Virus record (IMG/VR): IMGVR_UViG_3300020595_001672
Location: 1 to 61,438 of that record
Reading direction: 5' to 3' (one strand)
Source: a virus
Lineage: Duplodnaviria; Caudoviricetes
DNA: 61,438 nt
Shown here: piece after piece, positions 1-44,414 of the stretch
Layout of the letters: the number at the start of each line of letters is the position of its first letter
How positions within the stretch are numbered: the first letter of the stretch is position 1
The notes under the pieces: model-generated
What the model saw: only the letters and a program-made list of their open reading frames with translations
Database searches by the model: none
What the model was told of the DNA's origin: nothing
Program-made: the position numbers and the translations under genes

Positions 1-108
1 ACAGCTATTAAGGATAGTTGGGATTCTGATGAAAAGATTCCACGTTGTGAAAGTGTCTGTAAACAAAAGATACGAGATAAATTTATAAGAGAGAAGTTAA
101 ATGACTAA
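1..108 (+). CDS. 3' end of upstream gene (partial), possibly a radical SAM/SPASM C-terminus
   Basis: Frame 1 reads ...SWDSDEKIPRCESVCKQKIRDKFIREKLND*; CxxxC near the C-terminus; stop overlaps the ATG at 101. Confidence 0.55.
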   Translation, partial: TAIKDSWDSDEKIPRCESVCKQKIRDKFIREKLND

Positions 109-154
109 CGCACCATCAGAAACATTTTGTTATACAGCAACCTCGCATAAATAA
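101..154 (+). pseudogene. Orphaned 5' stub of the radical SAM gene (MTNAPSETFC...)
   Basis: ATG overlaps the upstream stop; PSETFC is identical to the start of the 796-2208 protein; 106-130 matches 810-834 at 23/25 nt. Confidence 0.7.
147..153 (+). promoter_or_regulatory. T4-like late promoter core ATAAATA, 5 nt before the endonuclease ATG
   Basis: ataaataacactatg (147-161) is identical to the - strand 15-mer at 52585-52599. Confidence 0.65.
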
Positions 155-158
155 CACT

Positions 159-812
159 ATGTACTACTTAATTTATGAAACTACAAATTTAGTAAACGGT
201 AAAAGGTATATAGGAATGCATCAGACTGAGGATTTAAATTCTTCGTATCTCGGTAGCGGGTTAGCGTTAGCAGCAGCTATTGAAAAATACGGGCGCGAAA
301 GCTTTAGTAAAAAAATACTACACAGCTTAAACTCTCGTGAAGAAATGATAGCTATGGAAAAAAAATTAGTTACACAAGAAATAGTTGAATCTGATGACTA
401 TTACAATTTGCGTATTGGCGGCCACGGCGGAAAGCTAACTGACGATATAAAGAAAAAAATCGGTGCTAAGTCAAAAGCTTGGTGGAGTCAAAAATCTCCT
501 GCCGAACGAACAGAACATATACGACATATGCAACGAAATTATACAACTGAGCGTCGTTCGGAAGTTTCATCTGGCGTTAATAACGGCATGTACGGAAAAC
601 AACATACCGAAGAAACAAAGAAAAAACTTCAAGAGAACAGCGCTAAAGCAGATCATACAATTACAAAATGGAAACACACCGACGGGTGTGTATTTGTCGG
701 TACAATGCGTGATTTCTATAAAACGTATAACCTCTGCAGGGCTTGGTGTATGCGTGTTCGCAGGGGCGAGAAAAAAACAATTAAAGGATGGCAGTATGTC
801 GGAGAAGTTTAA
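159..812 (+). CDS. GIY-YIG (Seg-like) homing endonuclease with NUMOD3-type motif
   Basis: LIYETTNLVNGKRYIG, YLGSG, YYN core; NGMYGKQHTEETKKKL. Confidence 0.9.
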   Translation: MYYLIYETTNLVNGKRYIGMHQTEDLNSSYLGSGLALAAAIEKYGRESFSKKILHSLNSREEMIAMEKKLVTQEIVESDDYYNLRIGGHGGKLTDDIKKKIGAKSKAWWSQKSPAERTEHIRHMQRNYTTERRSEVSSGVNNGMYGKQHTEETKKKLQENSAKADHTITKWKHTDGCVFVGTMRDFYKTYNLCRAWCMRVRRGEKKTIKGWQYVGEV

Positions 813-2208
813 CCCACCGTCAGAAACATTTTGTATTCTACCTTGGATGCATCTATCAACACGACCGGACGGAAGTCTCAGAGTTTGCTGTACAGCAAAC
901 GCAAGCTCAGTTGGTGCTACTAACGATAAAGTACATGGCGGCCAAGTAGGCATTCTCAAAACCGAAGACGGAAAACCTAACAATCTTAATGTTAGTGACT
1001 TTGAAACAGCATGGAACAGTACGTATATGAAGAACGTGCGTACTCAAATGCTTAATGGTGAAGTGCCACCGAGCTGTGTTAAGTGTTTTAAAGAAGAAGC
1101 AGCAGGGCATCGTAGTAAACGTCAGTGGGAAACGCACTATTGGAGTCAACGTGTAGACGTTGAGCGTCTTGTAGCAGACACAAACGAAGACGGCAGTGTA
1201 CCTCCGCAGCTTGCGTATATTGATCTACGCTTTGGAACAAAGTGTCAGTTGGCTTGTGTTATGTGTTCGCCTCACGATAGCTCAGGTTGGATTAAAGACT
1301 ACAAAGCTATCTTTCCAGAAGTAGAAAACGCTAGCCTTAAAACTACAATGCAGTGGAAAGACAAAGGCAGCTATAATGGTAGTAGCTATAACTGGCACAA
1401 ACAGAACCCTGTATTCTGGGAACAGTTCTACGAGCAAATGCCGCATATGCAGCAGATCTACTTCGCGGGCGGCGAGAGTCTTATTATTGAAGAGCATTAC
1501 GAGATTCTTGAAGAAGCCATTCGACAAGGCGTAGCAAAAGACCTAGAGCTACGTTACAACTCGAACGGGGTTGAATGGCGTGAAGACTTATTTGATCTAT
1601 GGAAAGAGTTTAAGCTGGTTCGTTTCCACTATTCAGTAGACAGCATTCACGAGATGAACGATTACATTCGTTACCCAAGCGAATGGAAACGTACTGAAGA
1701 AGTGTTCCATATCCTTGATAAAGAAACAAGCGATAATGTTGAAGTAACTGTTGCTTGCGCTGTACAAGCTCTTAACGTATACTACTTGCCTGATTTTATT
1801 AAGTGGAAACTAGAGCAAGGCTTTACAAAGATCAACATGTGGCCGTTCGGCGCAGGCGGCATTAACTATCACTTTGTATATCATCCACCGCACCTAAATG
1901 TAAAAGTACTTCCGGAATGGTTCAAGGCAGAATGCCGCAAAAAGTACGAAGAATTCTACCCATGGTGGGAAGCTAATTGGGAAAAAGGCATTCCAAGCTG
2001 GCATAGAGGTAAAGTAGATTACGAAACATGGCGTAATGCCGACTATGGCATTAAGCGTCTTGAAGGTATGCTAAGCTTTATGGAAAGCGAAGACTGGAGT
2101 ATTAGACTGCCTGAGACTAAGGAATTCTTACAACTATGCGACAAACAGCGTGGCTTAAACTTTGCTGATGTATTCCCTGAAATGAAGGATATTTTTAATG
2201 AGCTTTGA
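796..2208 (+). CDS. Radical SAM protein with N-terminal Twitch/SPASM-like Cys domain
   Basis: CQLACVMC (CxxxCxxC), FAGGE; N-terminal FCILPW...CC...CVKC. Start moved from 463 to ATG 796, which has AAGGA upstream. Confidence 0.9.
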   Translation: MSEKFNPPSETFCILPWMHLSTRPDGSLRVCCTANASSVGATNDKVHGGQVGILKTEDGKPNNLNVSDFETAWNSTYMKNVRTQMLNGEVPPSCVKCFKEEAAGHRSKRQWETHYWSQRVDVERLVADTNEDGSVPPQLAYIDLRFGTKCQLACVMCSPHDSSGWIKDYKAIFPEVENASLKTTMQWKDKGSYNGSSYNWHKQNPVFWEQFYEQMPHMQQIYFAGGESLIIEEHYEILEEAIRQGVAKDLELRYNSNGVEWREDLFDLWKEFKLVRFHYSVDSIHEMNDYIRYPSEWKRTEEVFHILDKETSDNVEVTVACAVQALNVYYLPDFIKWKLEQGFTKINMWPFGAGGINYHFVYHPPHLNVKVLPEWFKAECRKKYEEFYPWWEANWEKGIPSWHRGKVDYETWRNADYGIKRLEGMLSFMESEDWSIRLPETKEFLQLCDKQRGLNFADVFPEMKDIFNEL

Positions 2209-3418
2209 TACAGTAGACCTGTTAACAGGCAACATATTTCAAGTTACGTGGGACTTAGGTCGTCGCTGTAATTACGATTGTACCTATTGCCCAGCACACC
2301 GACATGATAACTTCTCAAAGCACGCAACTCTTGATGAGCTTAAAAACAGTGTAGACTTTGTATTTGGTTATATTGACACATATATGGAACATCGTCACCT
2401 TAAGAAAGACACAAGTATTAGTTTTACTGGCGGCGAACCTACAGTAAACCCAAACTTCATACCGTTTGCTAAGTATCTCAAAGAAGAATACGAGCGCCGC
2501 TATAAAGACAAGTGGCATGCCGGCTTTGCTCTTACTAGTAATGGTGCGTTCAGTCAAAAGATGGCCGACGCTATTATCGAAAGCATGAATCATATTACTG
2601 TAAGCTTTCATACCGAAGCCGATAAGAAGCTAAAGAAAACTATTATCGAACGTATTCTTTACATTCATAGACATAATAAAGGCCGACGGGCCGATGATCC
2701 TTTACATTGTTCTATTAGTGTAAACGTAATGTTTCACGCACACCCTGAATACTTTGACGAATGTAAAGAACTGTGCGAGCTGCTACACGAAGAAGGTGTT
2801 AAGTATACCCCTCGTGTAATTGGTGAAGAGCCTGATAGTGCTAGTGATTTTGCGCACAAGTACACTGAAGACCAACTTGACTATATGAAAAACTACTGGC
2901 GCAATATTCAAAAGAAGATTGACGAAAAAACAAGTAGACAAGAAGTTAATCATCAAACAAGCGCTGCTGGTAAGGATAAAACAGCAGAAACTAAAAAGCT
3001 CGGGATGAGCATCGGCCGTCCTTGCTGTGGGCAGCGTGAAATGTGTCTTAGTAGCCAAGGGCAAGACCGTAAGTCAACATTTGTTGACATGCGTGAATTT
3101 AAAGGTTGGCACTGTAGCGTTAACTGGTTCTTCCTACACCTAGAGCAACAAACTGATCAAGTATTCCATCATCAGACCTGCCAAGCAAAGTTTGACGGCA
3201 CTCGCGGTCCTATTGGTAAGATTAGTGAAGGTCAGCAGATCATTGATGACCTTAAGGCAAACATGGAAGCAAAAACAATGCCTACAGTTATATGCCCTAA
3301 GCATACATGCGGATGCGGTCTTTGTGCTCCTAAGAGCTTACACAAAGAAAACTACGAAAAGGTTCTGCTTAATCACGTAACACCGACTGTATTTGAAAAT
3401 AGTCTATTGAAGGAATAA
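2198..3418 (+). CDS. Radical SAM protein with Cys-rich C-terminus
   Basis: CNYDCTYC, FTGGEP; RPCCG, GWHC, CPKHTCGCGLCAPK. Confidence 0.9.
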   Translation: MSFDTVDLLTGNIFQVTWDLGRRCNYDCTYCPAHRHDNFSKHATLDELKNSVDFVFGYIDTYMEHRHLKKDTSISFTGGEPTVNPNFIPFAKYLKEEYERRYKDKWHAGFALTSNGAFSQKMADAIIESMNHITVSFHTEADKKLKKTIIERILYIHRHNKGRRADDPLHCSISVNVMFHAHPEYFDECKELCELLHEEGVKYTPRVIGEEPDSASDFAHKYTEDQLDYMKNYWRNIQKKIDEKTSRQEVNHQTSAAGKDKTAETKKLGMSIGRPCCGQREMCLSSQGQDRKSTFVDMREFKGWHCSVNWFFLHLEQQTDQVFHHQTCQAKFDGTRGPIGKISEGQQIIDDLKANMEAKTMPTVICPKHTCGCGLCAPKSLHKENYEKVLLNHVTPTVFENSLLKE

Positions 3419-3419
3419 T

Positions 3420-4217
3420 ATGAAAGTAGCAGTATTTGGTGATAGTTTTGGTTCGTATGTAGAAGATCACTTTGCGTTAAGGCCTGATAGCTTTTCGTGG
3501 GCAAAACAAATTCGATCTCAGTATGATGCTAAAATGTATTCCCGGTCAGGGACTAGTTTATATTGGAGTTATCGAGAGTTTACAGAACATCAACACAAGT
3601 ATGATAAGATTATATTTGTAGCTGGTATAAATGATAGACGAAAACTAAACCTCTCAAAATCAGAAATAAAAACCAAAACCAAAGACAAAAGTATTGATAA
3701 TTTTTTAAGCATAACACCGGCATTATTAGATAAATCGCATCCATTACATGCTAGTTATAAAGATTGGTATAATAAAAATACCTACGTAAACTGGAAAGAT
3801 ATATACAACACACTTAAAGGGTATTATACCTATATACATAGCAGTGCAGAAAACTTTCATTATTCGCGGCTTATGGTAAACTATGTTCAGTCGTTTCCTA
3901 ATACACTAGTTATACCCGCATTTAGAACTTCATATCGAGATTATGTTAACGAAGAAAAAAACTATTTAAACTATGACTGTGATATTAGTCTAGTAGATAT
4001 ACAATGTTTAGAGTGTGATCATTGGGGCATTAATCATGCCGAACAAGGACACAAATATATAGATACAAGGCATGGTCATCTAACTGACGACAACAATAGA
4101 ATACTTTATGATAAAATACAAAATTGGTTAGGCACTGGTGAATTTAGTATGCTTAAAGAAGATTTTGCAAATACGTTTCGCCCGGCGTCTTATTATTATA
4201 AGGAAAAACAACATTGA
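3420..4217 (+). CDS. SGNH/GDSL-like hydrolase or acyltransferase
   Basis: N-terminal VFGDSF, C-terminal DTRHGHLT; paralog of 4810-5541. Confidence 0.6.
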   Translation: MKVAVFGDSFGSYVEDHFALRPDSFSWAKQIRSQYDAKMYSRSGTSLYWSYREFTEHQHKYDKIIFVAGINDRRKLNLSKSEIKTKTKDKSIDNFLSITPALLDKSHPLHASYKDWYNKNTYVNWKDIYNTLKGYYTYIHSSAENFHYSRLMVNYVQSFPNTLVIPAFRTSYRDYVNEEKNYLNYDCDISLVDIQCLECDHWGINHAEQGHKYIDTRHGHLTDDNNRILYDKIQNWLGTGEFSMLKEDFANTFRPASYYYKEKQH

Positions 4218-4810
4218 TACCGATAAAACAAGGACCAGTGGGAGTTTTAGTAAGCGGCGGCGCAGACAGTGCTATGCTGCTTTATCTCTTAATGAAATAT
4301 CACGCTGATCAGATTTATATTTTTACACTTGCTAGTTCTCTAAAAAATAATGTAAATGCTAAGCACACTATTGATGTAATTAGCAAATGTTCAGAGCTAA
4401 CTGGTAATGAAAACTTTGAACATATAATGTCGTATTGCTATACTCAAACACCGAACGAGCTGTTTAGAAAAACATCAGAATATTTAAAGAATGGCACAGT
4501 TAATTGGGTATACACAGGGGTTACTAAAAATCCACCCAAATCAGTAACACGAGAATTTCATGACGAAACAACAGAATCACAAGAACGGGATCCTAATGTT
4601 GAACGTCCGATAATTCTCGAAGATAAAAAATATATAACGCCTTTTACTAACATAGATAAAAAAGGGTTAGCTGACTTGTATAAGCAGCACAATCTTACAG
4701 ATACGCTATTTCCACTTACCCGTAGTTGTGAATCATTAGAATATCTTACTGAGCACTGTGAAACCTGCTGGTGGTGTGAAGAGCGCAAATGGGGGTTTGG
4801 TAGTCTATAA
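4214..4810 (+). CDS. QueC-like PP-loop ATP pyrophosphatase
   Basis: VSGGADS PP-loop; TRSC-x9-C-x2-C-x2-C zinc motif; TTG start. Confidence 0.75.
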   Translation: MIPIKQGPVGVLVSGGADSAMLLYLLMKYHADQIYIFTLASSLKNNVNAKHTIDVISKCSELTGNENFEHIMSYCYTQTPNELFRKTSEYLKNGTVNWVYTGVTKNPPKSVTREFHDETTESQERDPNVERPIILEDKKYITPFTNIDKKGLADLYKQHNLTDTLFPLTRSCESLEYLTEHCETCWWCEERKWGFGSL

Positions 4811-5541
4811 TGAAAATAGCAGTATATGGCGACAGCTTTAGTGATATAGTTAAATATCAAAAAGCAAAGAATTATATTGGACCGCATGTAAGTCAATCAT
4901 GGCCAGCACGACTAGAAAAAAAATATGATGTAGAAAACTTTTCAAAAACAACTACTGGTTTAGAATGGTCGTACAACCTTGCTATATCTAATGACATAGA
5001 ATATGATAGAATTATTTTCTTAGCATCACATGTTGACAGGCTAATGATTAACAGTTCTTGGAGTAAAGAAGCAGGGCAAGAACATATTAATCAGGCTGCT
5101 ATTGGCAATGGTAACAGATTCTTCACAAAGACTATTTTAAAAGCAGCTCAGCAGTACTACGCCTATTTTACAAATCGAGAATTCTCTCATAACAGAGTAA
5201 CACTTATGTATAATGATCTAAAGCAGAGATTCGGCGATAGGCTATTATTACTGAGAATATTTTCAGACGGACTGGCTAATAAAGGTATCTATAATTGTGA
5301 TAACGAAATGCTTCTTAGTGATATACAAGCAGAAGAAATAAAACAACACTACGGCAGGCAGTGTGATTTAACCAAGCTTCTATCACGTGGCGATCTACGC
5401 ACTTGCCACCTTACTAATCCGCATCACGAAATGATGTTTAATAAACTAGATCATTGGATACAAACTAAAGAATTTAGCCTAACACAGACAGATGTGATAA
5501 CTATTAATACACAGGAACTAGCAAAGTACTTTAATGACTGA
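4810..5541 (+). CDS. SGNH/GDSL-like hydrolase or acyltransferase
   Basis: VYGDSF, WSY, YDRIIF and DLRTCHLT shared with 3420-4217. Confidence 0.6.
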   Translation: MKIAVYGDSFSDIVKYQKAKNYIGPHVSQSWPARLEKKYDVENFSKTTTGLEWSYNLAISNDIEYDRIIFLASHVDRLMINSSWSKEAGQEHINQAAIGNGNRFFTKTILKAAQQYYAYFTNREFSHNRVTLMYNDLKQRFGDRLLLLRIFSDGLANKGIYNCDNEMLLSDIQAEEIKQHYGRQCDLTKLLSRGDLRTCHLTNPHHEMMFNKLDHWIQTKEFSLTQTDVITINTQELAKYFND

Positions 5542-6646
5542 TTTAAAATGGTCGGAATACGACTTTACAAAAATACCATTTGATGACATAGTGCAAGTAG
5601 GACAGCGCACCCTACTGTATAGAGACTTGTTTACAGTAAGCTGGCTACTAGGGCGCTTCTGTAACTATCGCTGTAGCTATTGCTGGCCCTATGCTCGTAG
5701 TGACAAAAAAGATCACAGGCCTACAGAGTTGTGTTTAAGGACAATAGATGAAATTAAAAGACAAGCTCGTGAAAATGGTTTCAACTCGTTTCATTTTTCG
5801 CTTAGTGGCGGTGAGCCTACTTTTCATCCTGGTTACTTGGATATTTTATCATATCTGGCTGGCGATGTTGGTAATACTAATTATACAAGCATTCATATGA
5901 CGTCAAACTGCTCTCGGCCTAAGAAATGGTTTGAGACTTATGTAGAGAGTGCTAAGGCATTTCACCGTGCTAGCATTACTGCTAGCTTACACACAGAGCA
6001 CCTAAACACTCGTGAGAAGATGCAGGACTTTGCTGACAAGCTTATACTGTGCCAAGAGCACGATGTACAAGTAACTATCAACATGGTAATGGTTCCGGAG
6101 TGGTTTGAGAAAGACTGGGACAATGCTATGTTCTTTCACGAGCAAGGTATCAACGTGACACTAAAGCCGCAAAGCGACCCTACAGCCAGTCGTGTAGTTG
6201 ACGGTTATACAGACGATATGAAACAACGTCTGTATAACGGTATGCCTCAAATGGCTTACACTGAAGTTAAGCGTAAGTGGGCAGACCGTCCTAAGCCTAA
6301 TTTCCAGATACCACAAAACATACAAGGTCAGAACGACAAAAGTGTACCTTGGCATATGCAGGTAGAGTTTACAGACTCTAAAGGCAAAAAGTGGTACATG
6401 GACCAAGCAGAGCGCTTTAACGCATTTAACTTTAATAACTTCGAAGGCTGGCAGTGTAACGCAGGCTACAGTGGGATTATCATACGTGAACCAGACGGTA
6501 GTGTAAAGCGTAGTTATAGCTGTCACGATGTGCCGCTCGGTAACATCGAAACAGGATTCAAGTTGTTTGATAAGCCGCAGCCTTGTATTACTAGTAGTTG
6601 TGTTAGCAGCGCCGATAGCAAGATACCAAAACGCAAAGTTAGCTAA
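5534..6646 (+). CDS. Radical SAM protein, paralog of 2198-3418
   Basis: CNYRCSYC, LSGGEP; FEGWQC, SC, CITSSC. Confidence 0.9.
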   Translation: MTDLKWSEYDFTKIPFDDIVQVGQRTLLYRDLFTVSWLLGRFCNYRCSYCWPYARSDKKDHRPTELCLRTIDEIKRQARENGFNSFHFSLSGGEPTFHPGYLDILSYLAGDVGNTNYTSIHMTSNCSRPKKWFETYVESAKAFHRASITASLHTEHLNTREKMQDFADKLILCQEHDVQVTINMVMVPEWFEKDWDNAMFFHEQGINVTLKPQSDPTASRVVDGYTDDMKQRLYNGMPQMAYTEVKRKWADRPKPNFQIPQNIQGQNDKSVPWHMQVEFTDSKGKKWYMDQAERFNAFNFNNFEGWQCNAGYSGIIIREPDGSVKRSYSCHDVPLGNIETGFKLFDKPQPCITSSCVSSADSKIPKRKVS

Positions 6647-7389
6647 TGGAGTTGTGGCCGCACATTCCATACAATAAAGACGACGAGCCTAAATTTCTTT
6701 TTATGCTAACATCGCCAAATAGCGGATCGACAGCAATGGCGCAAATAGCAACTACAGCTAGTAACATTGAATTACTTCACAGTAAAGGTGAAGGACAGCA
6801 GTTGATTCCAGGAATGTTTGAAATAGACAGATGGTCTCCAGAAAAGTATATTGACTACGAATCAGTTAAGTCAGTATGGCTAGCAAAATATCAATCACTT
6901 AAAAAGCAAAATCCTTTGGTTAATACTATTTTTGAAAAGAGTCCACCTAATCAAGTTAGGATCTATAACATTATTAAAATGTTTAAGGACACGTCGCTAT
7001 TGATCAATGTAAGAAATCCTTACGCTAATTGTGCTAGTAGATTGTATCGGTATTATAATTACACTGATCAAAGAAGCAAAAGCTTACATGAGCTAGCAAA
7101 CAATTGGGTCAGAGAAAGTACTAATCTAAAACAGATAGCACACAACACTAGCTCTCAGATTATAACATACGAGCAATTTTGTAATAATCCTAATATACTA
7201 TCAACTTTTTTATCGACAGATGTTGATATATCTGTTAAAATAAAAATAAAGGATTATGAACCTAGTCTAGTAACAAACTATAATGATAAGCAGATAAGTA
7301 AGCTTACAGCTGAAGACATTAGCATTATAAGTTCTGTCATCCGGCATCACTCGGAGCTAGTAGAGTTTTATGGATATGAAGTACTTTAA
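6646..7389 (+). CDS. Sulfotransferase family protein
   Basis: PNSGST (5'-PSB-like loop), EKSP, VRNPYANCAS (3'-PB), ITYEQF. Confidence 0.75.
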   Translation: MELWPHIPYNKDDEPKFLFMLTSPNSGSTAMAQIATTASNIELLHSKGEGQQLIPGMFEIDRWSPEKYIDYESVKSVWLAKYQSLKKQNPLVNTIFEKSPPNQVRIYNIIKMFKDTSLLINVRNPYANCASRLYRYYNYTDQRSKSLHELANNWVRESTNLKQIAHNTSSQIITYEQFCNNPNILSTFLSTDVDISVKIKIKDYEPSLVTNYNDKQISKLTAEDISIISSVIRHHSELVEFYGYEVL

Positions 7390-7957
7390 AGAATTAACAG
7401 AGTTGCCTACATTAAATTTGTGGGACGAATTTAATCAATTGCTTGATAATAACACTATCAGTTGGCACCCGCATGAAAGAGACCAAATTTGTGTTAATAC
7501 AGTTCCAGGCGAAGAAAGATCTATACACTTTGGACGAGGTAGTCTACAGTATGATTGGGATAACGCATACGAAGATAACAGCGGAAAACTAGTAGTTCCA
7601 AAGCGTAAAGTAAAACTATTAGAAAGTGATTTTACTGTATTGTGCGAACAATTCAAAGGTACGTTGTTTGAAGAAGTATACACTGCGCTATCAGCAAAGT
7701 TTTTGCTAGGCAGAGTGCGTATTATGAATCTAAAGCCTAAAACTTGTTTGTCTTGGCACGTGGACAGCCATCCCAGAGTTCATTACCCGCTAAAAACACA
7801 ACAGGGATGTATGATGATTATTGAAAATGAGCTACAAGTGTTAGAACAAGGCAAGTGGTATCACACAAATACAGTATATTCTCATACTGCTATAAATAGT
7901 AGTAAAGAAGAACGGTATCATTTAGTTGCTACTGTTATTGAGGTACTAGATGCATAA
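7370..7957 (+). CDS. Fe(II)/2OG oxygenase, Asp/Asn beta-hydroxylase-like
   Basis: RVRIM...WHVD...RVHYPL...HTAIN...RYHLV (HxD...H...R). Confidence 0.8.
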   Translation: MDMKYFKELTELPTLNLWDEFNQLLDNNTISWHPHERDQICVNTVPGEERSIHFGRGSLQYDWDNAYEDNSGKLVVPKRKVKLLESDFTVLCEQFKGTLFEEVYTALSAKFLLGRVRIMNLKPKTCLSWHVDSHPRVHYPLKTQQGCMMIIENELQVLEQGKWYHTNTVYSHTAINSSKEERYHLVATVIEVLDA

Positions 7958-8672
7958 TACTACTAAATTATTAATTAATCATGCGTTTGCGCATTTGCTT
8001 TTAATTCCTGCGGTTATGTACGGCGAGTGGTGGATGTGGCTCGCTGGCTTCCTTTGGTGGTATATTATTGCTATTGTAGCCATTAGTGGAGGCTATCACA
8101 GGTACTACAGTCATCGAGCATTTAAAGCAGGCAGTTGGTATGAATATGCTGTTAACATATTAGGTATCTTTAGTGGCGCCGGACCGGCAATGACCTGGGC
8201 AGCAGTACATAAGCAGCATCATGCAAGTAGTGATACCGAAAATGATCCGCACAGCTATCATACTAAAGGTGTGTGGGCAGTGTATATGAACACTTGGGGA
8301 TACACGGCTAAGATACACCGTCGCTATATAAAGCAGTTGATGAAGAGTTCAACACTTAAATGGTTTTACGAAAATTACTTTATTTTAAATATATGTATTG
8401 TTATTATACTGTTTGCTATTGATCCAATGCTGTTAGTGTTTGGATATGGGTTGCCAGTTGTACTTGCGTTTCACGGGTATGGATTACTTAACTTACTGGG
8501 TCATAGAAACGCACAGCCTAATAATTCTTGGGTTGCTAACATATTAACTGCTGGCGAAGGTTGGCACGCTAATCATCATAAAAAAGCATACGATTATAAG
8601 ATTGGATGGGAATGGTGGCAGTTTGATCCAACTAAATGGTTTATTCAAGCTATAAGGACTGATAGAAAGTAG
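7950..8672 (+). CDS. Membrane fatty acid desaturase (delta-9 type)
   Basis: His boxes HRYYSH, HKQHH and GEGWHANHH; hydrophobic segments. Confidence 0.92.
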   Translation: MHNTTKLLINHAFAHLLLIPAVMYGEWWMWLAGFLWWYIIAIVAISGGYHRYYSHRAFKAGSWYEYAVNILGIFSGAGPAMTWAAVHKQHHASSDTENDPHSYHTKGVWAVYMNTWGYTAKIHRRYIKQLMKSSTLKWFYENYFILNICIVIILFAIDPMLLVFGYGLPVVLAFHGYGLLNLLGHRNAQPNNSWVANILTAGEGWHANHHKKAYDYKIGWEWWQFDPTKWFIQAIRTDRK

Positions 8673-8673
8673 C

Positions 8674-9270
8674 ATGAAGCCGTACCTTGTCCTCGACGAT
8701 TATTTCTTAGCAGACGACAAAGTATTACAAGATGCTTTGAATTTTTATAGGCAAGACAAATTTCAAGACTTTCGTCTAGTCTCTCCTGGCAAGATGGTTG
8801 ACGCATATGCGTTTGATGAAGTTATTTCTAAGAATAAAGAACTTGTAGAATACAAGCAAGAGCATTTACAGCCAATAGCTGATAAGTTTTTAGAAAGATT
8901 TAATTTAACTGATGTTAAAAGTAGGTGTTTCTTTTTTGTAGTACAAGAAGACAAGTACGCAGGATGGCATGTAGACGCTGGCAAGGTTGCTACGTCGCCG
9001 TCTGGCACTGTAGTTGATCAAAAATCACTAATAACAACAGCAATGAATTACAGCTTTAATCGAGAACGGCGTGCTCCTGTAAAATGGAGAGATGTTGATC
9101 AAAATATTATTGCTGAACTTTCTTCTTATAAATGCGCTATCTTAGACGTACTAACTGAGCATATGGTTGATAGTAAAGATCAAAACTTTCCTGAACGAGC
9201 AAATTTTAAGATGTCTTTTTATGAAATTCCGTATGCTGAAATAAGAAGAAGAATCAAGAGAGCGCTATAA
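8674..9270 (+). CDS. Putative Fe(II)/2OG oxygenase
   Basis: WHVD...EHMV...ERANFKMSF. Confidence 0.55.
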   Translation: MKPYLVLDDYFLADDKVLQDALNFYRQDKFQDFRLVSPGKMVDAYAFDEVISKNKELVEYKQEHLQPIADKFLERFNLTDVKSRCFFFVVQEDKYAGWHVDAGKVATSPSGTVVDQKSLITTAMNYSFNRERRAPVKWRDVDQNIIAELSSYKCAILDVLTEHMVDSKDQNFPERANFKMSFYEIPYAEIRRRIKRAL

Positions 9271-9926
9271 TGAATTTTACATTTGCTGCTATAGACACAG
9301 GAATAACACAGCAAGAAAAAGATCAAATGCTTGCTGAGGTGTTAGCGCTACCTGACGATATGCATCACTATAACAGTTTCCGTGGTTGTAGGATGATAGG
9401 CATATTTAACGGCGGCGGAAAACTCGGCGGCCGTAATGTAGCAGGTAACACAGCTAAAGGAACATTCCAATATACCCCAGCTGGTAATTTATGTCCTACT
9501 ATCCGACGTGTATGTGAGGAAAAGATTTTTCCTTTTATGGATCCTATAGGACGGGTAACTATTCTAAGAACTGCTCCTAACACAGGACTTGAAGTTCATC
9601 TCGACAGCACACCGGAAGAAATAGGAACCTTACAGCACAAGTACAGAACAGTACTAAACGGTAATATCGGCAAGCTCTACTTTCTTGATAAAGATTTAAA
9701 TAAGGTATATGTGCCTGAGTACTACGATACATACACAATGGACGGAAGTCATGCGCATAGTATCGATCCAGACCCTAATGAAAAAATAACTTTGTGTGTC
9801 GGCGCTCCGTGGAAAGGCGTAGCTACTGAAGAATATAATCAATTGTTGGCTAATGCTAAGTTTTCGTTTTCAGTTAGTAGGCCTAACACACTTGATACAT
9901 GGGTAGACCCGCACTTTAAAAAATGA
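9270..9926 (+). CDS. Putative Fe(II)/2OG oxygenase
   Basis: RVTILRT...VHLD...HAHSI...KITLCVG. Confidence 0.6.
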   Translation: MNFTFAAIDTGITQQEKDQMLAEVLALPDDMHHYNSFRGCRMIGIFNGGGKLGGRNVAGNTAKGTFQYTPAGNLCPTIRRVCEEKIFPFMDPIGRVTILRTAPNTGLEVHLDSTPEEIGTLQHKYRTVLNGNIGKLYFLDKDLNKVYVPEYYDTYTMDGSHAHSIDPDPNEKITLCVGAPWKGVATEEYNQLLANAKFSFSVSRPNTLDTWVDPHFKK

Positions 9927-10513
9927 AAATATTACACTTAGATGCTTACGAAGATAGATTTCTAAATTATTGTTCTGAGTTCTATACTGCCCGAGAAAAG
10001 AAATGGGACTGGTTTGACCCCAACTTGCCTTACAGTGTTGTAAACAGATACAAGCGATACCCGCATTGGTCTTTCTTAGTAGATAACAACGAAGATTTGA
10101 TAGCATTTAGTTGTGTTCAAACACACTTTTTTCCGAGTAACTGTGCTAGAGTTTTAACCCGTACTTACTATCATCCTTCGCACAGACGTGGGCATTTAGC
10201 GTATGAAACAAATACAAAAACTCCTGCTATGTATATGCTAGAAGATCAAATGAAGTACGTAAAAAATTTAAATATAGACCATTTGTTTTTTAGTGTAGAG
10301 TATCTAAGACGTAAAAGTTCAATAACCAACTTAGCAAAAAAACTTCATGGTAAATATAATGACGAATGGAAAGTGTTAGACGACTTATATCAAACTTATC
10401 CCCAAGACGATGATAAAAGAAGTTGGCAAGTAATATGCGTTCTTAGTAGAACTAGTAACACGTTTCCTTTAAAGAACCTAACAATAGACGAATGGAAAAA
10501 GATGTATGGCTGA
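9923..10513 (+). CDS. Putative GNAT-fold protein
   Basis: LIAFSC strand followed by RTYYHPSHRRG, resembling GNAT motif A. Confidence 0.4.
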   Translation: MKILHLDAYEDRFLNYCSEFYTAREKKWDWFDPNLPYSVVNRYKRYPHWSFLVDNNEDLIAFSCVQTHFFPSNCARVLTRTYYHPSHRRGHLAYETNTKTPAMYMLEDQMKYVKNLNIDHLFFSVEYLRRKSSITNLAKKLHGKYNDEWKVLDDLYQTYPQDDDKRSWQVICVLSRTSNTFPLKNLTIDEWKKMYG

Positions 10514-11159
10514 GAAGTGTTTAATTAAAAAAAGTAAAAAGAGAAGAGTTATTGGTGACAACGGCCCCCGCCGCTATGAACTCAAAGAATATGGCGTAAT
10601 TGATACTAATGTTCCGCAAGAGGTAATTGACGAAATTTTATCTATTGCTGGCTCTTATAACGGCAATGATCTCGGAGGCGACAACTATCAGATTTCTCAG
10701 CACTGCGACGTTAGTACAGCATTTACGGCATCGGTGGAGTATAAGCAGATTTTATTACAAAACTTAGATGCCGATGACGAAATAGACGAGACTGGATACA
10801 CTGCATGGCGTGATGATGTTGAGTGTAGTGCTATTAAAAAGTATTTAACTGAAACCTATAAACAACCGTATCGTGCCAGAGTAAGTGTACTACCCCCGGG
10901 TAATGATCTTAATTGGCACATTGATACTGATACTAGCGTATTGTGTAGAGCACAGATCCCAGCCTTTCACAAAGGAAGCATGTTTCAATGGAAAACAAAA
11001 ACAGGCGTTACTGAAGTAGAAATGGAACCCGGTAAAGCTTACTTTGTTAATACAGGATGGACGCATCGTGTAGAAAACCAATCTTCTAATGTGAGAATTG
11101 TTTTAATATTTGGCATTGATTACGAAAACATACCGGACAAAGCTAGTATTACAGCATGA
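10506..11159 (+). CDS. Fe(II)/2OG oxygenase, Asp/Asn beta-hydroxylase-like
   Basis: RARVSVLPPG...WHID...HRVEN...RIVLIF. Confidence 0.8.
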   Translation: MAEKCLIKKSKKRRVIGDNGPRRYELKEYGVIDTNVPQEVIDEILSIAGSYNGNDLGGDNYQISQHCDVSTAFTASVEYKQILLQNLDADDEIDETGYTAWRDDVECSAIKKYLTETYKQPYRARVSVLPPGNDLNWHIDTDTSVLCRAQIPAFHKGSMFQWKTKTGVTEVEMEPGKAYFVNTGWTHRVENQSSNVRIVLIFGIDYENIPDKASITA

Positions 11160-13063
11160 ATATATTAGTATCAAATCCAAGCTTACTTGAAAAGTCTTTG
11201 TACTTGCCTTATCTTTGGGCCAGGTTTAAGACATACATTGACTTGGATTTTGATAAAGAAGTAGACGTAAATTGGTTAAGGCCAATAACATCTTATGATG
11301 CTAGCGATTTAGATTTAACACAAAAAATTGACGTTTTAGCTCTTAGTTGTTATACTTGGAACTGGAAAAGAAATCTAAAATTAGCAGAAAAGGTTAAAGA
11401 AGTTTATCCTGACTGTATAGTAGTCGCCGGAGGACCGCATGTAGATTTTACTAACCCTAATGTATTTGAAAATACTGATATTGATGTAATATGTTATGCT
11501 GAAGGTGAAAAGGTTTTTGCTGAACTAGTATATGCGTTACAGAACAGCATAGATATTGACTCGGTGCCTGGAATAATTACCAAAGAAAATCCAACAAAAG
11601 AACGCCCAGTAGTTCCTAAGCTAGATCTTAGTACGTTGAGTAGTCCTTGGTTACATTGCCAAGCTGAGTTAGCAGCATACGCCGATGAGCTACGTAACCA
11701 AGATTGTAGAGTATGCGTGGCATTTGAAACTAATCGAGGATGTCCGTATAGCTGTTCCTTTTGTGATTGGGGTAGTGCCACTAACAGTAAACTTAAAAAG
11801 TTTAGAACAGATCTAGTATTAGAAGAAATCGAAGTCATGATGAACATGCGTCCTGACATGATTTTTATTACAGACGCAAATTACGGTGTATATAAAGAAG
11901 ACTTTGATTTTGTTAAAAAGCTTGTAGAGTGTAAAGAAAAAACACAACATGAAACGGCAGTAGTGCTAATGGCTGCTAAGAATAAGAAAACAGTGCTTGC
12001 GCAGTGTTACAGTGAGCTACAGAAAGCAGGAATGATTCAAGTAGCGCAGCTAGGAATACAACACACAGATCTTGAAGTTCTTAGCTTAATTGATCGAGAC
12101 AACATAAAGATGGAAGATAGTCTCTATCAAATGGAAGAAAGTTGGGAATACGGTGTTCCGTTAGTGCCGGCACTAATTGCTGGCAACCCAGGAGACACTA
12201 TAAACAAATGGAAAAAATGTCTCGGCGACATGGCAAGAATGGGATTTCATGAAGACATACGTGTACACGACTTTATGCTACTACCTAATGCTCCGGCAAT
12301 GTCCGAAGAGTACTTTACAAAATACAAATTGGGCATACTGAGTAAGCCCTACGCAGATCAACCTACAGATAGAATACTAGTAGAATCTAATTTCTTAGTT
12401 GAAAGCTTTTCGTACACTCGTGACGATTGGATTGAAATGCAGGTACTAAGTTATTTCTTTCAAGCCTGTCATGTCCTGAGTGTTACTAAGTTTGTGTCAA
12501 TGTTAGCTTATCACACTCTTGATATCGAATACGAAGATTTTTACGATTACATAAAAAATCTACCTGTAGTACAACAAATATTAAAACCTGTTTACGATTT
12601 ATTTAACAACTATATGTACGGTGACAGAACAAGTAAGTTTATTGAATATAAAAATCTAAAATTAACTGTTGAGAATTATATTTATTTACAGCTAATAGAT
12701 AATATTGACGAACTTTACGATCAGTTTAGTTTAGATCTAGGTGAATACACTGACAGTATTATCGAGTTTCAAAAGTTTGTAGTATTGAATATAAACAATC
12801 ATAAAGATTCTATAACAATTGATTATGATTTTCGTGACTATTTCAAGAACATATTGTTATTGCCTGCGTTTAAAAAATCACAAATACAGCCAACTAATAA
12901 AGTGTCTACGTATAAAAAAGACAAGAGAGTAGGCATGCACGGGTTTTTAGATACAAGTGCTATCGCAACAGTTGAGCAACTTAGTAAAAAGATTTTTAAG
13001 GTAATCTATAATCGAAGGCACAAGATGTTTTATCATTCGGGTGTATTTGACTATGACTACTAA
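11156..13063 (+). CDS. Cobalamin-binding (class B) radical SAM protein
   Basis: N-terminal B12-binding pattern LSCYTWN...VVAGGPH...EGE; ETNRGCPYSCSFCDWG. Confidence 0.9.
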   Translation: MNILVSNPSLLEKSLYLPYLWARFKTYIDLDFDKEVDVNWLRPITSYDASDLDLTQKIDVLALSCYTWNWKRNLKLAEKVKEVYPDCIVVAGGPHVDFTNPNVFENTDIDVICYAEGEKVFAELVYALQNSIDIDSVPGIITKENPTKERPVVPKLDLSTLSSPWLHCQAELAAYADELRNQDCRVCVAFETNRGCPYSCSFCDWGSATNSKLKKFRTDLVLEEIEVMMNMRPDMIFITDANYGVYKEDFDFVKKLVECKEKTQHETAVVLMAAKNKKTVLAQCYSELQKAGMIQVAQLGIQHTDLEVLSLIDRDNIKMEDSLYQMEESWEYGVPLVPALIAGNPGDTINKWKKCLGDMARMGFHEDIRVHDFMLLPNAPAMSEEYFTKYKLGILSKPYADQPTDRILVESNFLVESFSYTRDDWIEMQVLSYFFQACHVLSVTKFVSMLAYHTLDIEYEDFYDYIKNLPVVQQILKPVYDLFNNYMYGDRTSKFIEYKNLKLTVENYIYLQLIDNIDELYDQFSLDLGEYTDSIIEFQKFVVLNINNHKDSITIDYDFRDYFKNILLLPAFKKSQIQPTNKVSTYKKDKRVGMHGFLDTSAIATVEQLSKKIFKVIYNRRHKMFYHSGVFDYDY

Positions 13064-13739
13064 CTTATTAGAAGCACATTCGACTTGGTTCTTTCCGCCG
13101 ACTACTTTTAGTAACGTGTTAGAGAAGTTTAACAGTAAATTTTCTCAAGGTTCGTTGTCGGGGTTAGCTATTACAAGTCGCACAGGCGAAGTTAATAATG
13201 GCTTTGAGTTTGGATTAGGTATGCATTCTCTAAATGGTTATTGTATGGACTTTGCTAGAGAAAACAAAGCTTATCATTGGATTGAATATAACAAGCCTAC
13301 AGAAGTTTGCCAAGGAGCAATTTATGACTTGTATACGTTTCTCAAAGATCAGCAATTAAATCCTACACGATTACGTTTGAGTGCGTTACGTCCTAATAGT
13401 ACTATTCCTATACATAACGACGCAGTATGCAACACACAGTACTGTATGAAGTTACATATACCAGTTATAACAACTAACAACTGTGTTACTGTTATGGACA
13501 ACCAAGAGTTTGTTATGGAAGTAGGCAAGGCATATATGTTTAATGCTAATAGTCGGCACAGTGTTATTAATAACAGCAACAGTGTTAGGTGGCATTTTAT
13601 CTGTGACGTATATGACGAAAAAGGCAATTTTAGTTTCGGTAAATGTAGCAATTATAAATATCATATAGATATAGCAAGTAAATGGAGAAGAGCAGTAGAT
13701 GGCATTGACAATACAAAATATATACTCATCGATCAGTAA
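13053..13739 (+). CDS. Fe(II)/2OG oxygenase, Asp/Asn beta-hydroxylase-like
   Basis: RLRLSAL...IHND...LHIPVIT...HSVIN...RWHFI; ATG 13053 preferred to GTG 13041. Confidence 0.8.
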   Translation: MTTNLLEAHSTWFFPPTTFSNVLEKFNSKFSQGSLSGLAITSRTGEVNNGFEFGLGMHSLNGYCMDFARENKAYHWIEYNKPTEVCQGAIYDLYTFLKDQQLNPTRLRLSALRPNSTIPIHNDAVCNTQYCMKLHIPVITTNNCVTVMDNQEFVMEVGKAYMFNANSRHSVINNSNSVRWHFICDVYDEKGNFSFGKCSNYKYHIDIASKWRRAVDGIDNTKYILIDQ

Positions 13740-14514
13740 GAAAGAAATATTAAATATCGCAAAAGAAAACGGCTTTTGGGCCTTGCGTGATATTGAATTT
13801 ACAAGAGATGAGTTTTTAGATTTTTGTAAGTATATAGGCACAGTGTGGCCAGGGCATCTACACGAGCTTCATACTGAATCGTACGATGACGATGGGGTTG
13901 TTGATTGGTCAAGTAATACACGTTTTAAGTCTCTTAGTATACCATGGCACGCCGATAATCCGTGGAATAAACATTATCAATTTCCTATCCGAGTGTTCGG
14001 AGCAGTTACTATACCGGATCCAAAAGATGGTCCTCTAGAGTTTTTAAATCAAGGTAAATGGTTTAGTAATTTACCTGAGGATCGTAAAGAGTATTTTCGT
14101 TCGCTCAGAGTACTAACTGAAGACTATAAAGGTGCGTGCCAGCCTTACTGGTCTAGCTTTGTAAAAAAGCATCCGATTACTGGTAATGAAAGTTTATTTT
14201 GGGGATCGATGGTTGTTCATACTGATACTTACGGATTAGCACCCGACGAAGGGCATCGTTTTAATCACTTTGCGTCAACTATGGCTATTATAAAGCCTTC
14301 TAGAGAAATTGTATCAGATGAAGAAATTTCTTCATGGTTTGAAGAAATGTTAAAGGACTATTACTCGATATGGGAATTTCGTGAAAAAGATCTATTAGTA
14401 ATGGATAACTGGGATCACTTTCATTATAGAAGAACACTAACACACAAGAATGAAAGACTGTTATTTAGAAAAACAGTATTACAGCCATGGCAAAAGATTA
14501 TTGGTACACAGTAA
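13699..14514 (+). CDS. TauD/TfdA family dioxygenase
   Basis: WHAD, KKHPITGNESLF, DLLVMDNWDHFHYR. Confidence 0.85.
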   Translation: MALTIQNIYSSISKKEILNIAKENGFWALRDIEFTRDEFLDFCKYIGTVWPGHLHELHTESYDDDGVVDWSSNTRFKSLSIPWHADNPWNKHYQFPIRVFGAVTIPDPKDGPLEFLNQGKWFSNLPEDRKEYFRSLRVLTEDYKGACQPYWSSFVKKHPITGNESLFWGSMVVHTDTYGLAPDEGHRFNHFASTMAIIKPSREIVSDEEISSWFEEMLKDYYSIWEFREKDLLVMDNWDHFHYRRTLTHKNERLLFRKTVLQPWQKIIGTQ

Positions 14515-14966
14515 CTAGATTTCGTAAAGACGAAGCATACTTTCGTGATTACATAACAAATGAAGATAAGAGATTTCAAACTGGTCCGGGAGCAGGCCTT
14601 GGTGAAGATTTCTGGAAAGCATACGCAGCAGCATACAATCGTGCAAAAACTTTAGGCGACATAATTATACGAGCCAAGGTAATTAATCAGCGGTCAATAC
14701 TAAGCATATATCATATATGGAAAGATAGAGAAGCACTAGATCGTTTTGAAAATACAGTAAATCCTGAATTATTTTTAAAAACACTAACGCCTAAGTTTGA
14801 AATATCGCAGTTTCAGTGTGCAATAGACGAAGAAAGAAAAAACAAAATCTTTCAGCTAATAGTAACACAGAATAAAAAAATATTACAGGTAGTAAGAGAA
14901 GATCACCGACAATCAGGAATGACTATCGGTGATCCGTTAAAATATCCTACGCTGTTTGTACACTAA
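14487..14966 (+). CDS. Hypothetical protein, possibly ABM/Dabb-like
   Basis: Last gene of the + strand run; HIWKDREALDRF resembles the ABM WxxxEA motif. Confidence 0.4.
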   Translation: MAKDYWYTVTRFRKDEAYFRDYITNEDKRFQTGPGAGLGEDFWKAYAAAYNRAKTLGDIIIRAKVINQRSILSIYHIWKDREALDRFENTVNPELFLKTLTPKFEISQFQCAIDEERKNKIFQLIVTQNKKILQVVREDHRQSGMTIGDPLKYPTLFVH

Positions 14967-17184: not shown

Positions 17185-17185
17185 A

Positions 17186-41788: not shown

Positions 41789-41790
41789 TA

Positions 41791-44344: not shown

Positions 44345-44383
44345 GATAAATCCTTATTTGTAGTATTTATCATAAAGAGAAGG

Positions 44384-44409: not shown

Positions 44410-44414
44410 TGTTT

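Follow-up and report, generated by a model that had tools for sequence, protein, structure and literature searches.

What does a bacteriophage make with a long, unbroken row of genes for radical S-adenosylmethionine (SAM) enzymes, oxygenases and other enzymes of the tailoring type? The question is raised by IMG/VR virus record IMGVR_UViG_3300020595_001672, which was analysed as a whole (61,438 bp; the window). Seventeen co-directional genes (g01-g17) occupy positions 796-14966 of its plus strand, and the junctions between them are overlaps or gaps no longer than 1 nt (Table 1). The visible row is best explained as part of a larger enzyme island, built from cassettes at a hypervariable site of a marine jumbo phage. 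Judged from their sequences, the genes are intact tailoring-type enzymes under selection. The island is composed of two modules, a left one (g01-g06) that continues upstream and a right one (g07-g17). As to function, we favour, with a confidence somewhat short of even, cytoplasmic tailoring of a glycan or glycoconjugate by enzymes of this hypervariable region, possibly tied to host recognition.

For the family-B DNA polymerase encoded in the window, identity is 49.5% with the enzyme of Sinorhizobium phage Phosso and 42-45% with those of Vibrio, Agrobacterium (Atu_ph07, 43%), Yersinia and Erwinia jumbo phages. The backbone also includes genes for a Lon-like protease, a MoxR-like ATPase, DnaJ, PhoH and thymidylate synthase. 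These relationships and backbone genes identify the window as a fragment of an uncultured marine jumbo phage. CheckV puts the completeness of the record at 17%, which implies a genome of about 360 kb. Altogether 36 window proteins were compared with at least one family library, 26 of them with Pfam. A metagenome search with g01 gave at least 572 related stretches; 80 loci were kept, and in all 80 the g01 homologue is 83-99% identical in amino acids. Fetched loci carry L-numbers below, and G-numbers denote related phage fragments (G001-G005) or bacterial genomes (G006, G031).

Composition of the row

A sequence-only reading of this DNA had described 18 coupled genes. We count 17; the eighteenth would be the GIY-YIG homing-endonuclease gene that precedes them. 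Its picture of a tightly coupled row on the strand opposite to nearly everything else is borne out by the junctions and by what follows: from position 14947 on, six of 61 open reading frames (ORFs; greedy caller) lie on the plus strand, namely four tiny ones, a spurious one over the acyl carrier protein (ACP) region, and PhoH. We recovered its three radical SAM proteins with extra cysteines (g01, g02, g06; Pfam and NCBIfam), its B12 radical SAM (g14; Pfam B12-binding and Radical_SAM domains), a TauD dioxygenase (g16) and a sulfotransferase (g07; Sulfotransfer_3), both over the Pfam cut-off, a desaturase-like protein (g09), a QueC-like one (g04, a PP-loop protein with a QueC-like C-terminus) and a protein of predicted GNAT fold (g12; AlphaFold2, Foldseek). 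Its five Asp/Asn-hydroxylase-like or related oxygenases come down to four at best (g08, g13 and g15 by Pfam, g11 by hhalign); g10 shows an HxD...H pattern only. For its two SGNH-like proteins (g03, g05) the GDS motif is invariant but the fold match is weak, and the ABM-like nature of g17 was not confirmed. Every catalytic motif sought is present in 15 of the 17 genes, g12 and g17 having none defined. Membrane-spanning stretches occur in g09 only.

Table 1. Positions of the island genes and of the other features named in the text
Feature	Position	Strand	Basis or remark
3' end (35 codons) of a further island gene, radical SAM/SPASM	1..108	+	frame open to TAA 106-108
Orphan mini-ORF, the old g01 start severed by endonuclease insertion	101..154	+	first 10 residues run into g01 in L028-L032
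GIY-YIG/NUMOD3 homing-endonuclease gene	159..812	+	Pfam NUMOD3 and SegE_GIY-YIG
g01, N-terminal-twitch radical SAM, island anchor gene	796..2208	+	NF033640
g02, radical SAM, Cys-rich C-terminal half	2198..3418	+	Pfam Radical_SAM 48.1 bits
g03, GDS-motif protein, possibly SGNH-like	3420..4217	+	paralogue of g05
g04, PP-loop ATPase, QueC-like Cys-rich C-terminus	4214..4810	+	Pfam QueC
g05, GDS-motif protein	4810..5541	+	paralogue of g03
g06, radical SAM, second anchor gene	5534..6646	+	Pfam Radical_SAM 59.1 bits
g07, sulfotransferase	6646..7389	+	Pfam Sulfotransfer_3 PF13469, 30.5 bits (cut-off 27)
g08, Asp/Asn-hydroxylase-family cupin, paired with g09	7370..7957	+	PF05118 40.8 bits
g09, membrane desaturase-like di-iron protein	7950..8672	+	three His boxes, hydrophobic stretches
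g10, HxD...H pattern only	8674..9270	+	no family match
g11, divergent cupin, probable 2-oxoglutarate (2OG) oxygenase	9270..9926	+	hhalign against cupin profile
g12, divergent GNAT-fold protein	9923..10513	+	AlphaFold2 pLDDT 96.2
g13, Asp/Asn-hydroxylase-family cupin	10506..11159	+	PF05118 27.5 bits
g14, B12-binding radical SAM	11156..13063	+	PF02310 and PF04055
g15, Asp/Asn-hydroxylase-family cupin	13041..13739	+	PF05118 52.4 bits
g16, TauD-family 2OG dioxygenase	13699..14514	+	Pfam TauD PF02668 46.7 bits (cut-off 27)
g17, small protein, last gene of the chain	14487..14966	+	no family above cut-off
Mtd_N-domain protein, candidate receptor-binding/fibre protein	14947..16233	-	Pfam Mtd_N 40.9 bits
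ACP	38789-39064	-	DSL motif

In the left module, g01 matches NF033640 (N_Twi_rSAM) with 426 bits against a cut-off of 170, its residues 9-467 aligning with profile positions 1-398. It has CX3CX2C at residue 150 and N-side cysteines at 13, 31, 32, 94 and 97; a Pfam SPASM match over residues 13-97 (20.5 bits) stays just below the cut-off of 21.5. The CX3CX2C motif of g02 lies at residue 24 and is accompanied by 12 other cysteines. Proteins g03 and g05 (27.5% identity to each other, E 1.4e-17) form a family with invariant G7, D8, S9, R73 and H220. In SGNH/GDSL proteins, blocks I, II, III and V read GDS, G, GxND and DxxH; the invariant histidine of g03 and g05 lies in D-x-R-x-x-H, not in DxxH. Neither has a Pfam match, the top Foldseek matches are GDSL esterases (E ≥ 1.7e-3, TM ≤ 0.37, model pLDDT 79), and a search of 5.8 billion proteins brought up only 13 homologues of g03. 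In g04 the PP-loop motif SGGxDS takes the form SGGADS at residue 14, followed by CxxCxxC at residue 182; the Pfam QueC match (31.1 bits) is confined to residues 141-196, the last 56, and the score with the QueC equivalog TIGR00364 is 19.3 bits, far below the cut-off of 150.

The right module opens with g07, which carries PAPS-loop-like motifs. PF13469 is carried by 45 of 58 g07 homologues; the nearest relatives are 39-46% identical, and those with a source name come from marine bacteria and cyanobacteria. All three PF05118 cupins score above the gathering cut-off of 22.6 bits. In g08 the HxD lies at residue 130 and the distal H, with R, at 172; H130, D132 and H172 are invariant across 15 sequences. 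The corresponding positions are 138 and 187 in g13 and 125 and 173 in g15, again with R. Divergent g11 has no Pfam match, but hhalign aligns it to the cupin profile (74%, E 2.7e-5) with HxD and distal H in register; homologues occur in L021, L066 (50%), L128 and L160. The same comparison did not link g10 to the cupin profile (0.3%, E 0.21). This protein has no Pfam, PHROG or NCBIfam match and no homologue in any fetched locus.

The His boxes of g09 are at residues 50, 87 and 206, and its two long hydrophobic stretches at 27-50 and 138-175. No Pfam match was found at E ≤ 0.1, and the NCBIfam DesA family gives 51 bits, below its cut-off of 400; the g09 homologues in G006 and G031 do match PF00487. 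Among deposited phages g09 finds only Pelagibacter phage Mosig and one Acinetobacter phage metagenome record. For g12, Foldseek gives 65 PDB matches at E ≤ 0.001 (best E 8e-6, TM 0.5-0.65), and those listed are GNAT acetyltransferases or complexes containing one. It has no Pfam match, the usual coenzyme A-binding loop motif is not visible in its sequence by eye, and a tblastn search of deposited phage records gave nothing. Its family counts 122 representatives in 1.84 billion and was found in four of 101 genomes of one bacterial phylum.

Both domains of g14 exceed their cut-offs (PF02310 44.9 bits against 32.1, PF04055 31.6 against 29.5), CX3CX2C lies at residue 196, and the protein is likely a methyltransferase. 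The nearest subfamily, KedN5 (NF033712), scores 194 bits, far under its cut-off of 700. B12 radical SAM relatives of g14 were fetched in 80 genome loci; 78 of these, many from actinomycetes, share no other island gene and are therefore uninformative on the island, while the two that share g14 neighbours are one phage contig and G006. The TauD match of g16 covers residues 11-257 (profile 24-265). For g17 there is no Pfam ABM match and no PDB match, and the Atlas cluster with ABM in 76% of its members comes no higher than rank 20 (score 0.89). PDB sequence searches with g03, g07, g12, g15, g16, g17 and the Mtd_N protein yielded nothing significant.

Two modules at a hypervariable site

The boundary between the modules became visible by comparison with related metagenome loci. 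The left module shares 85-95% nucleotide identity with five of them. Against L030 and L032, blastn similarity covers 810-6637 (85-95%) and ends at the 3' end of g06. With g07 and g09-g17, blastn found nothing in any of the 80 loci. Past g06, L030 and L032 hold a different but similarly composed set, with homologues of g08 (56%) and g09 (34%), three ORFs (one of them a small cupin), another PF05118 cupin and a B12 radical SAM (33%). Homologues of g08 (45-59%) come after g06 in relatives. Evidently, the one dedicated pathway of the sequence-only reading is rather a pair of modules, swapped at the g06 end between near-identical phages.

Change is not limited to this boundary, as gene content between g01 and g06 varies among the 80 loci, and g05 is 69% identical to the L030 and L032 copies where the adjoining g06 is 98-100% identical. 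Values of dN/dS against L030 are 0.026 for g01, 0.016 for g02 and 0.023 for g06, a mark of strong purifying selection; they are 0.13-0.21 for g03-g05, indicating weaker selection than on the former three. Many of the 80 loci carry g06 at an amino acid identity of at least 77%. In L093, g01 and g06 are 83% and 78% identical to ours, as against 28-68% for three backbone genes. Such excess conservation of g01 and g06 reflects either very strong constraint or exchange between diverged phages. We also observed that in the L093 and L128 contigs g01 and g06 are 77-87% identical in amino acids, the backbone being only 28-68% identical.

The row ends against a candidate receptor-binding gene. The Mtd_N protein retains 62-79% identity at its N-terminus with its counterparts in G003 and G004, and only 32-37% over the remainder. 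A conserved N-terminus with a diverged remainder is frequent in receptor-binding proteins. In G003 and G004, whose backbone proteins are 55-70% identical to those of the window, different enzyme islands stand directly after the Mtd_N homologue, and the backbone order is kept: homologues of 17689-18930, 17442-17702 and 16573-17253, then the Mtd_N protein. In G002, G005 and L093 the place of the Mtd_N gene is taken by thyA, and in G005 an enzyme set follows thyA. The islands of relatives have unannotated giant ORFs beside them. Only two proteins encoded upstream of these islands have a match in Ralstonia phage RsoM2USA, whose genes there are all annotated as hypothetical.

Several side observations concern this site. 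The g17 and Mtd_N genes overlap tail to tail by 20 nt (14947-14966), so that no terminator is possible between them. The thymidylate synthase gene of the window (60474-61328, minus strand) is found far from the island, with 110 bp left to the other contig end. Three relatives (L025, L026, L093) have thyA next to the backbone on its island side, and a rearrangement or an assembly break in the window would account for the difference. The idea of a circular contig, taken from that position of thyA in relatives, was dropped, as there is no end repeat and CheckV completeness is low. L003, L013, L015 and L019 hold a separate, "backbone" B12 radical SAM between homologues of 24601-25284 and 23102-24010, where the window (23102-25284) has small ORFs only. 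Of the 80 g01-bearing loci, 40 encode a highly conserved protein of 74 aa (e.g. L082:3062-3286), usually directly ahead of the first island radical SAM.

Continuation past the contig end

Position 796, given as the 5' limit of the row by the sequence-only reading, is not its limit: the chain continues to base 1 and past the contig end. Bases 1-130 are 99.2% identical to L032 9895-10024, and bases 1-108 correspond to the end of a 317-aa ORF with Radical_SAM and SPASM domains (L032:9049-10002). At least ten further island ORFs lie upstream in L032, the nearest relative. Those 10 kb encode an asparagine-synthase-like amidotransferase, three radical SAM/SPASM proteins including the 317-aa one, a QueC-like protein, three N-twitch radical SAMs and two ORFs of no assigned family. 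Six of these upstream ORFs were scanned with Pfam and contain no glycosyltransferase, polyketide synthase (PKS), nonribosomal peptide synthetase or precursor; three others were matched to g01 by BLAST only. Since the row is cut by the contig end, absence of a scaffold cannot be read from the window, and the "no visible scaffold" of the sequence-only reading is weakened, being partly an artefact of the cut.

The junction upstream of g01 has been altered by a mobile gene. The inserted segment (131-809), which carries the homing-endonuclease gene, is flanked by 25-nt copies of the g01 start (106-130 and 810-834). The endonuclease gene is absent from L028-L032, where the base equivalent to window position 130 joins directly to 835. 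As a consequence of the insertion the old g01 start survives as an orphan mini-ORF, and the present g01 start is an ATG within the 3' end of the endonuclease gene. Run X3 holds both alleles, namely a contig with the insert and another with a loose end after base 130 that reads 835-844.

The row from g06 on was also traced in DNA sequencing runs. Bases 5534-14966 are present at a sampled-word share of 0.98-1.00 in 16 DNA runs from eight studies, some of which are perhaps the source sample. A single 9394-nt contig of run X3 equals 6508-15901 with zero differences, and X9 spans the same stretch with two contigs.

Shared gene sets in other phages and in bacteria

By megablast, the 14 kb row has no match in 50,697 phage records, and only five of the 17 row proteins match any PHROGs family at E ≤ 0.001. 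Homologues of g09, g11, g12, g13 and g14 are found together in L160, and those of g11, g12 and g14 in L128 and L021; the right-half family set recurs, at 21-35% identity and in other order, in these three loci and in Mosig. Small profiles applied to all loci placed a cupin no more than two genes away from 7 of 14 desaturase ORFs; for the other ORFs the figure is 102 of 2792 (3.7%). Of the seven misses, three lie at the edges of loci, and L030 and L032 are closely related to each other.

Two bacterial genomes bring the same families side by side. In G031, PhyH, desaturase, cupin and GNAT genes form an uninterrupted cluster near a PP-loop-like gene and a methyltransferase; in G006 a cupin, a GNAT and a desaturase gene adjoin one another. 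The latter region (G006:C34:135-196 kb) is truly bacterial, encoding EF-Tu, prolyl-tRNA synthetase domains and SecE. It contains homologues of g01 (62%), g06 (65%), g09, g11, g12, g13 and g14, the g13 homologue being full-length (35%) and standing beside the g12- and g09-like genes. Given the cupin-desaturase pairing, and a g12-type GNAT beside both in G006 and G031, the genes do not assort fully independently. Independent assortment together with decayed active sites had been named beforehand among the grounds for abandoning a dedicated pathway; what we found is intact motifs, dN/dS of 0.016-0.21 for g01-g06, and conserved pairs. A further g09-like desaturase (28%) was seen in G005 (L199:13067-13816), apart from the radical SAM island of that phage.

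The relatives also carry sugar enzymes. A Pfam census of 62 ORFs of the G006 region gave 15 Radical_SAM, three Glycos_transf_2, two TauD, two FA_desaturase and two Asp_Arg_Hydrox, one UDP-sugar dehydrogenase and one PMT_2. One overlapping chain there (L189:10688-17830) consists of a g02-like radical SAM (38% identical to g02), an N-twitch radical SAM, a 475-aa protein, a Ugd-like protein, a 360-aa protein and a GT2 glycosyltransferase. A second census covered 148 cluster representatives from the 80 g01 loci: Radical_SAM 48, SPASM 15, Nitroreductase 5, Asp_Arg_Hydrox 3, QueC 3, Carbamoyltransferase 2, CTP_transf_3 2, and AMP-binding, UDPG_MGDP_dh, APS_kinase, Glyco_tranf_2_3 and Alginate_lyase 1 each. 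The 25 families listed for these representatives include no peptidase, transporter or PKS.

Possible substrates

The sugar-enzyme chain of G006 and the census of 148 representatives are the reason why we put a sugar-containing substrate first. Under this scheme, 16 soluble enzymes and one membrane enzyme would act in the cytoplasm and at the inner membrane of the infected cell on a nucleotide- or lipid-linked sugar, or on a glycan or glycoconjugate built from it. The starting material would come from the host or from genes past the contig end. The left module would contribute radical SAM chemistry and ATP-dependent amidation by the PP-loop protein; the right module would hydroxylate through its four or five 2OG-type oxygenases, desaturate or oxidise at the membrane, transfer acyl groups (GNAT), C-methylate (B12 radical SAM) and sulfate. 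The product might change the virion surface or the envelope of the infected cell, which would fit a site with differing enzyme sets in relatives. Substrate class, order of steps and purpose are what we infer here.

Several results weigh against a sugar-containing substrate. No glycosyltransferase or nucleotide-sugar enzyme is encoded in the 14 kb or in the six scanned upstream ORFs of L032, and none of the former class was found among ten scanned neighbours of the PhyH-desaturase-cupin-GNAT cluster of G031. The sugar link stems mainly from relatives of the left module and from one 61-kb bacterial region. PF05118 enzymes with precedent act on proteins (AspH) or on lipid acyl chains (LpxO, OlsC), and lipids are the substrates of desaturases. 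The island lies on the strand opposite to the Mtd_N gene, so that co-expression with it is not implied. Finally, two metatranscriptome runs of one study gave short exact contigs on parts of g02, g03, g11-g14, g01 and neighbouring genes, covering 10 of 30 bins (X19) and 16 of 30 (X20), uncovered bins being uninformative; because such libraries may contain DNA, transcription of the island is only hinted at.

Part of this evidence leads towards lipids. We regard it as rather unlikely that g08-g16 of the right module, perhaps together with the ACP, produce or alter a membrane lipid or the lipid moiety of the envelope. In that scheme the GNAT would N-acylate an amine, the desaturase-like enzyme, the cupins or TauD would oxidise the acyl chain or head group, and the B12 radical SAM would methylate and g07 sulfate. 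It is consistent with g09 being the sole membrane protein, with His boxes spaced as in desaturases, with the cupin-desaturase pairing and the contiguous clusters of G006 and G031 (PhyH adjoining in the latter), with a faint match of g15 to LpxO (15.8 bits), and with scores of g14 against hopanoid methylase HpnR (64 bits) and a lipid B12 radical SAM family (49 bits). All lipid-family scores, however, are far under their cut-offs, no PlsC-type acyltransferase or lipid head-group enzyme was seen, and the best fold matches of g12 are small-molecule acetyltransferases, not users of acyl-ACP.

The ACP encoded in the window, proposed in the sequence-only reading as carrier of the acyl substrate, would suit a lipid product too. 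The protein itself is real, as judged by its DSL motif, but its gene lies 24 kb from the row and was not found in any of the five related fragments (G001-G005), so that co-occurrence is not supported. G001 and G005 cover the syntenic place and are without the block that holds it. ACP matches in the metagenome-assembled genomes G006 and G007 were set aside, as they lie on other contigs and are probably the bacteria's own. Sullivan et al. (2010, PMC3037559) name ACP, ACP synthase, TauD and two Asp/Asn hydroxylases among the genes distinctive of cyanophages P-HM1 and P-HM2, a combination in favour of lipids; in cyanophage MED4-213, by contrast, an ACP-like gene stands among baseplate and fibre genes with no hydroxylases nearby. 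In the window, too, the ACP gene sits with fibre-like genes, in a second variable block (~39000-53000) that contains a 1656-aa ORF and a tail-fibre PHROG match at 50818-52137.

For the favoured sugar-containing substrate, a glycolipid such as lipopolysaccharide might reconcile the evidence for sugars with that for lipids. A protein target would account for other features of the row. The enzymes might introduce cross-links, hydroxylations, C-methylations and sulfation into a fibre or other virion protein, or into a peptide encoded past the contig end, in the manner of ribosomally synthesised and post-translationally modified peptides; we consider this improbable. The best sub-threshold NCBIfam matches of g02 are peptide maturases (at most 44 bits), but these scores are 6- to 10-fold under the cut-offs and equal to those for MoaA and viperin. 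SPASM is frequent among the island relatives (15 of the 148 representatives), PF05118 takes its name from a protein hydroxylase, and protein tyrosine sulfotransferases belong to Sulfotransfer_3. The row adjoins a candidate fibre gene, and giant ORFs stand beside the islands of relatives. Against this, the chain leaves no space for a precursor gene, its gaps being at most 1 nt, and no peptidase or exporter is among the families listed in the two censuses. The 74-aa protein is uniformly conserved, unlike a precursor with a variable core, and no small ORF with a variable core was found in relatives. In G006, moreover, radical SAMs are coupled to Ugd-like and GT2 genes.

The row might also serve no common substrate and be a store of independent auxiliary genes, packed together by cassette insertion only, such as a desaturase for membrane fluidity or oxygenases consuming 2-oxoglutarate. 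Close relatives indeed differ greatly in content, g07, g10 and g17 have no homologue in any fetched locus, and the bacterial and cyanobacterial origin of the named nearest relatives of g07 suggests separate acquisition; phage desaturases and 2OG oxygenases are treated as stand-alone auxiliary genes in PMC3037559 and, reportedly, in PMC5776448. Yet pairs and trios are conserved across phage families and bacteria, the right-half set recurs in L160, L128, L021 and Mosig, and the entire chain is translationally coupled, which makes a mere store distinctly improbable.

It is very improbable that phage DNA or a nucleotide is modified, as in pathways of the 7-deazaguanine type with QueC-like and QueE-like enzymes: the QueC-like C-terminus of g04, a weak match of g06 to a QueE-like PHROG (E 2.6e-6) and weak matches of g02 and g06 to prokaryotic viperin and MoaA, which act on nucleotides, are opposed by the low QueC score of g04 and its restriction to the C-terminus, by the lack of FolE, QueD and a DpdA-like transglycosylase among the scanned proteins, and by a membrane desaturase, a sulfotransferase and a GNAT that do not fit.

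Returning to a glycan or glycoconjugate as the favoured substrate, we add a bolder and, in our estimate, unlikely proposal on the right module. It might be a self-contained new system of ocean phages and some bacteria, with a core of desaturase-like enzyme, PF05118 cupin and divergent GNAT that, at the inner membrane, builds or reworks an N-acylated amine, either an aminolipid or an acylated amino sugar attached to a lipid carrier. B12 radical SAM methylation, hydroxylation and sulfation would diversify the product, and swapping of modules would rewrite a surface molecule that other phages use as receptor.

Comparison with known systems

Islands of this kind are frequent in marine phage DNA, as the number of g01-related metagenome stretches indicates. 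If their product alters the virion or the host envelope, they bear on the competition of ocean phages for abundant hosts. A cultured pair, Mosig and Pelagibacter HTCC1062, carries a like operon, so that the chemistry is testable at the bench. The claim that no phage pathway of this kind has been characterised stands in so far as a full-text literature search found no paper characterising a product of such islands; the islands themselves have already been described or annotated.

The right module resembles, in its combination of enzymes, the ornithine-lipid enzymes OlsB, OlsC and OlsE and the lipid A enzyme LpxO, which represent an N-acyltransferase fold, PF05118 hydroxylases and a membrane di-iron enzyme. 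The likeness would be functional only: the LpxO score of g15 compares with a cut-off of 500, and g09 is desaturase-like, not an FA_hydroxylase.

A close counterpart is the annotated operon Mosig_00081-00072 of Mosig EXVC030M (MT647606), which reads Asp_Arg_Hydrox, FA_desaturase, aminotransferase, FMN reductase, peroxiredoxin, hypothetical, TauD, methylase, N-acetyltransferase and Asp_Arg_Hydrox. It shares with the right module two Asp_Arg_Hydrox genes, FA_desaturase, TauD, an N-acetyltransferase and a methylase, and likewise begins with Asp_Arg_Hydrox followed by FA_desaturase. Identity to Mosig proteins is 29.5% for g09 (the FA_desaturase gene), 26% for g13 and 21% for g16. Back to back with the operon, on the other strand, are three genes annotated for molybdenum-cofactor biosynthesis (one noted as MoaA), probable radical SAMs, together with nitroreductases, a sugar aminotransferase, a carbamoyltransferase and an epimerase. 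The operon differs in that its methylase is not a B12 radical SAM, its GNAT does not match the g12 profile (which found no Mosig ORF), and it has no sulfotransferase; aminotransferase, FMN reductase and peroxiredoxin are found in Mosig only. It also stands directly before the tail-fibre genes, on the same strand. A search of the Mosig genome announcement (PMC7892664) for five terms on the operon returned none.

Hypervariable islands are known from pelagimyophages and cyanomyophages as the host recognition cluster (Zaragoza-Solas et al. 2020, PMC7029224). That cluster and our island are both large, non-syntenic and different between related phages; both are rich in non-fibre enzymes, including radical SAM cassettes. 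The cluster is with or beside fibre-type genes and lies between VrlC and gp14; for our island the candidate fibre context is the adjacent Mtd_N protein and a fibre-like gene (50818-52137) 35 kb away. Asp/Asn beta-hydroxylase is counted there as core to all pelagimyophages. The differences are that the present phage, a jumbo phage, belongs to another lineage and that glycosyltransferases, stressed in the same text, are absent from the visible part of the island.

Arrays of phage radical SAMs have likewise been described: the available text of PMC2853527 reports 11-12 of them in Campylobacter phages CP220 and CPt10, and that of PMC5332604 a T4-like environmental genome with 12. Protein g01 is a full-length member of NF033640, and in phage islands its relatives occur as paralogues arrayed in tandem. 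The visible island has a short array, of one N-twitch and two other radical SAMs. Here the radical SAMs are fused to an oxygenase-rich module, and neither paper describes one in the text available to us.

Phage radical SAM arrays (PMC2853527, 2010; PMC5332604) and the concept of the hypervariable island (PMC7029224, 2020) are thus already published. New are the oxygenase-rich right module with a sulfotransferase, exchanged at the g06 end; the conserved cupin-desaturase(-GNAT) unit common to phages and bacteria; and the direct operon link of radical SAMs with sugar enzymes in bacterium G006.

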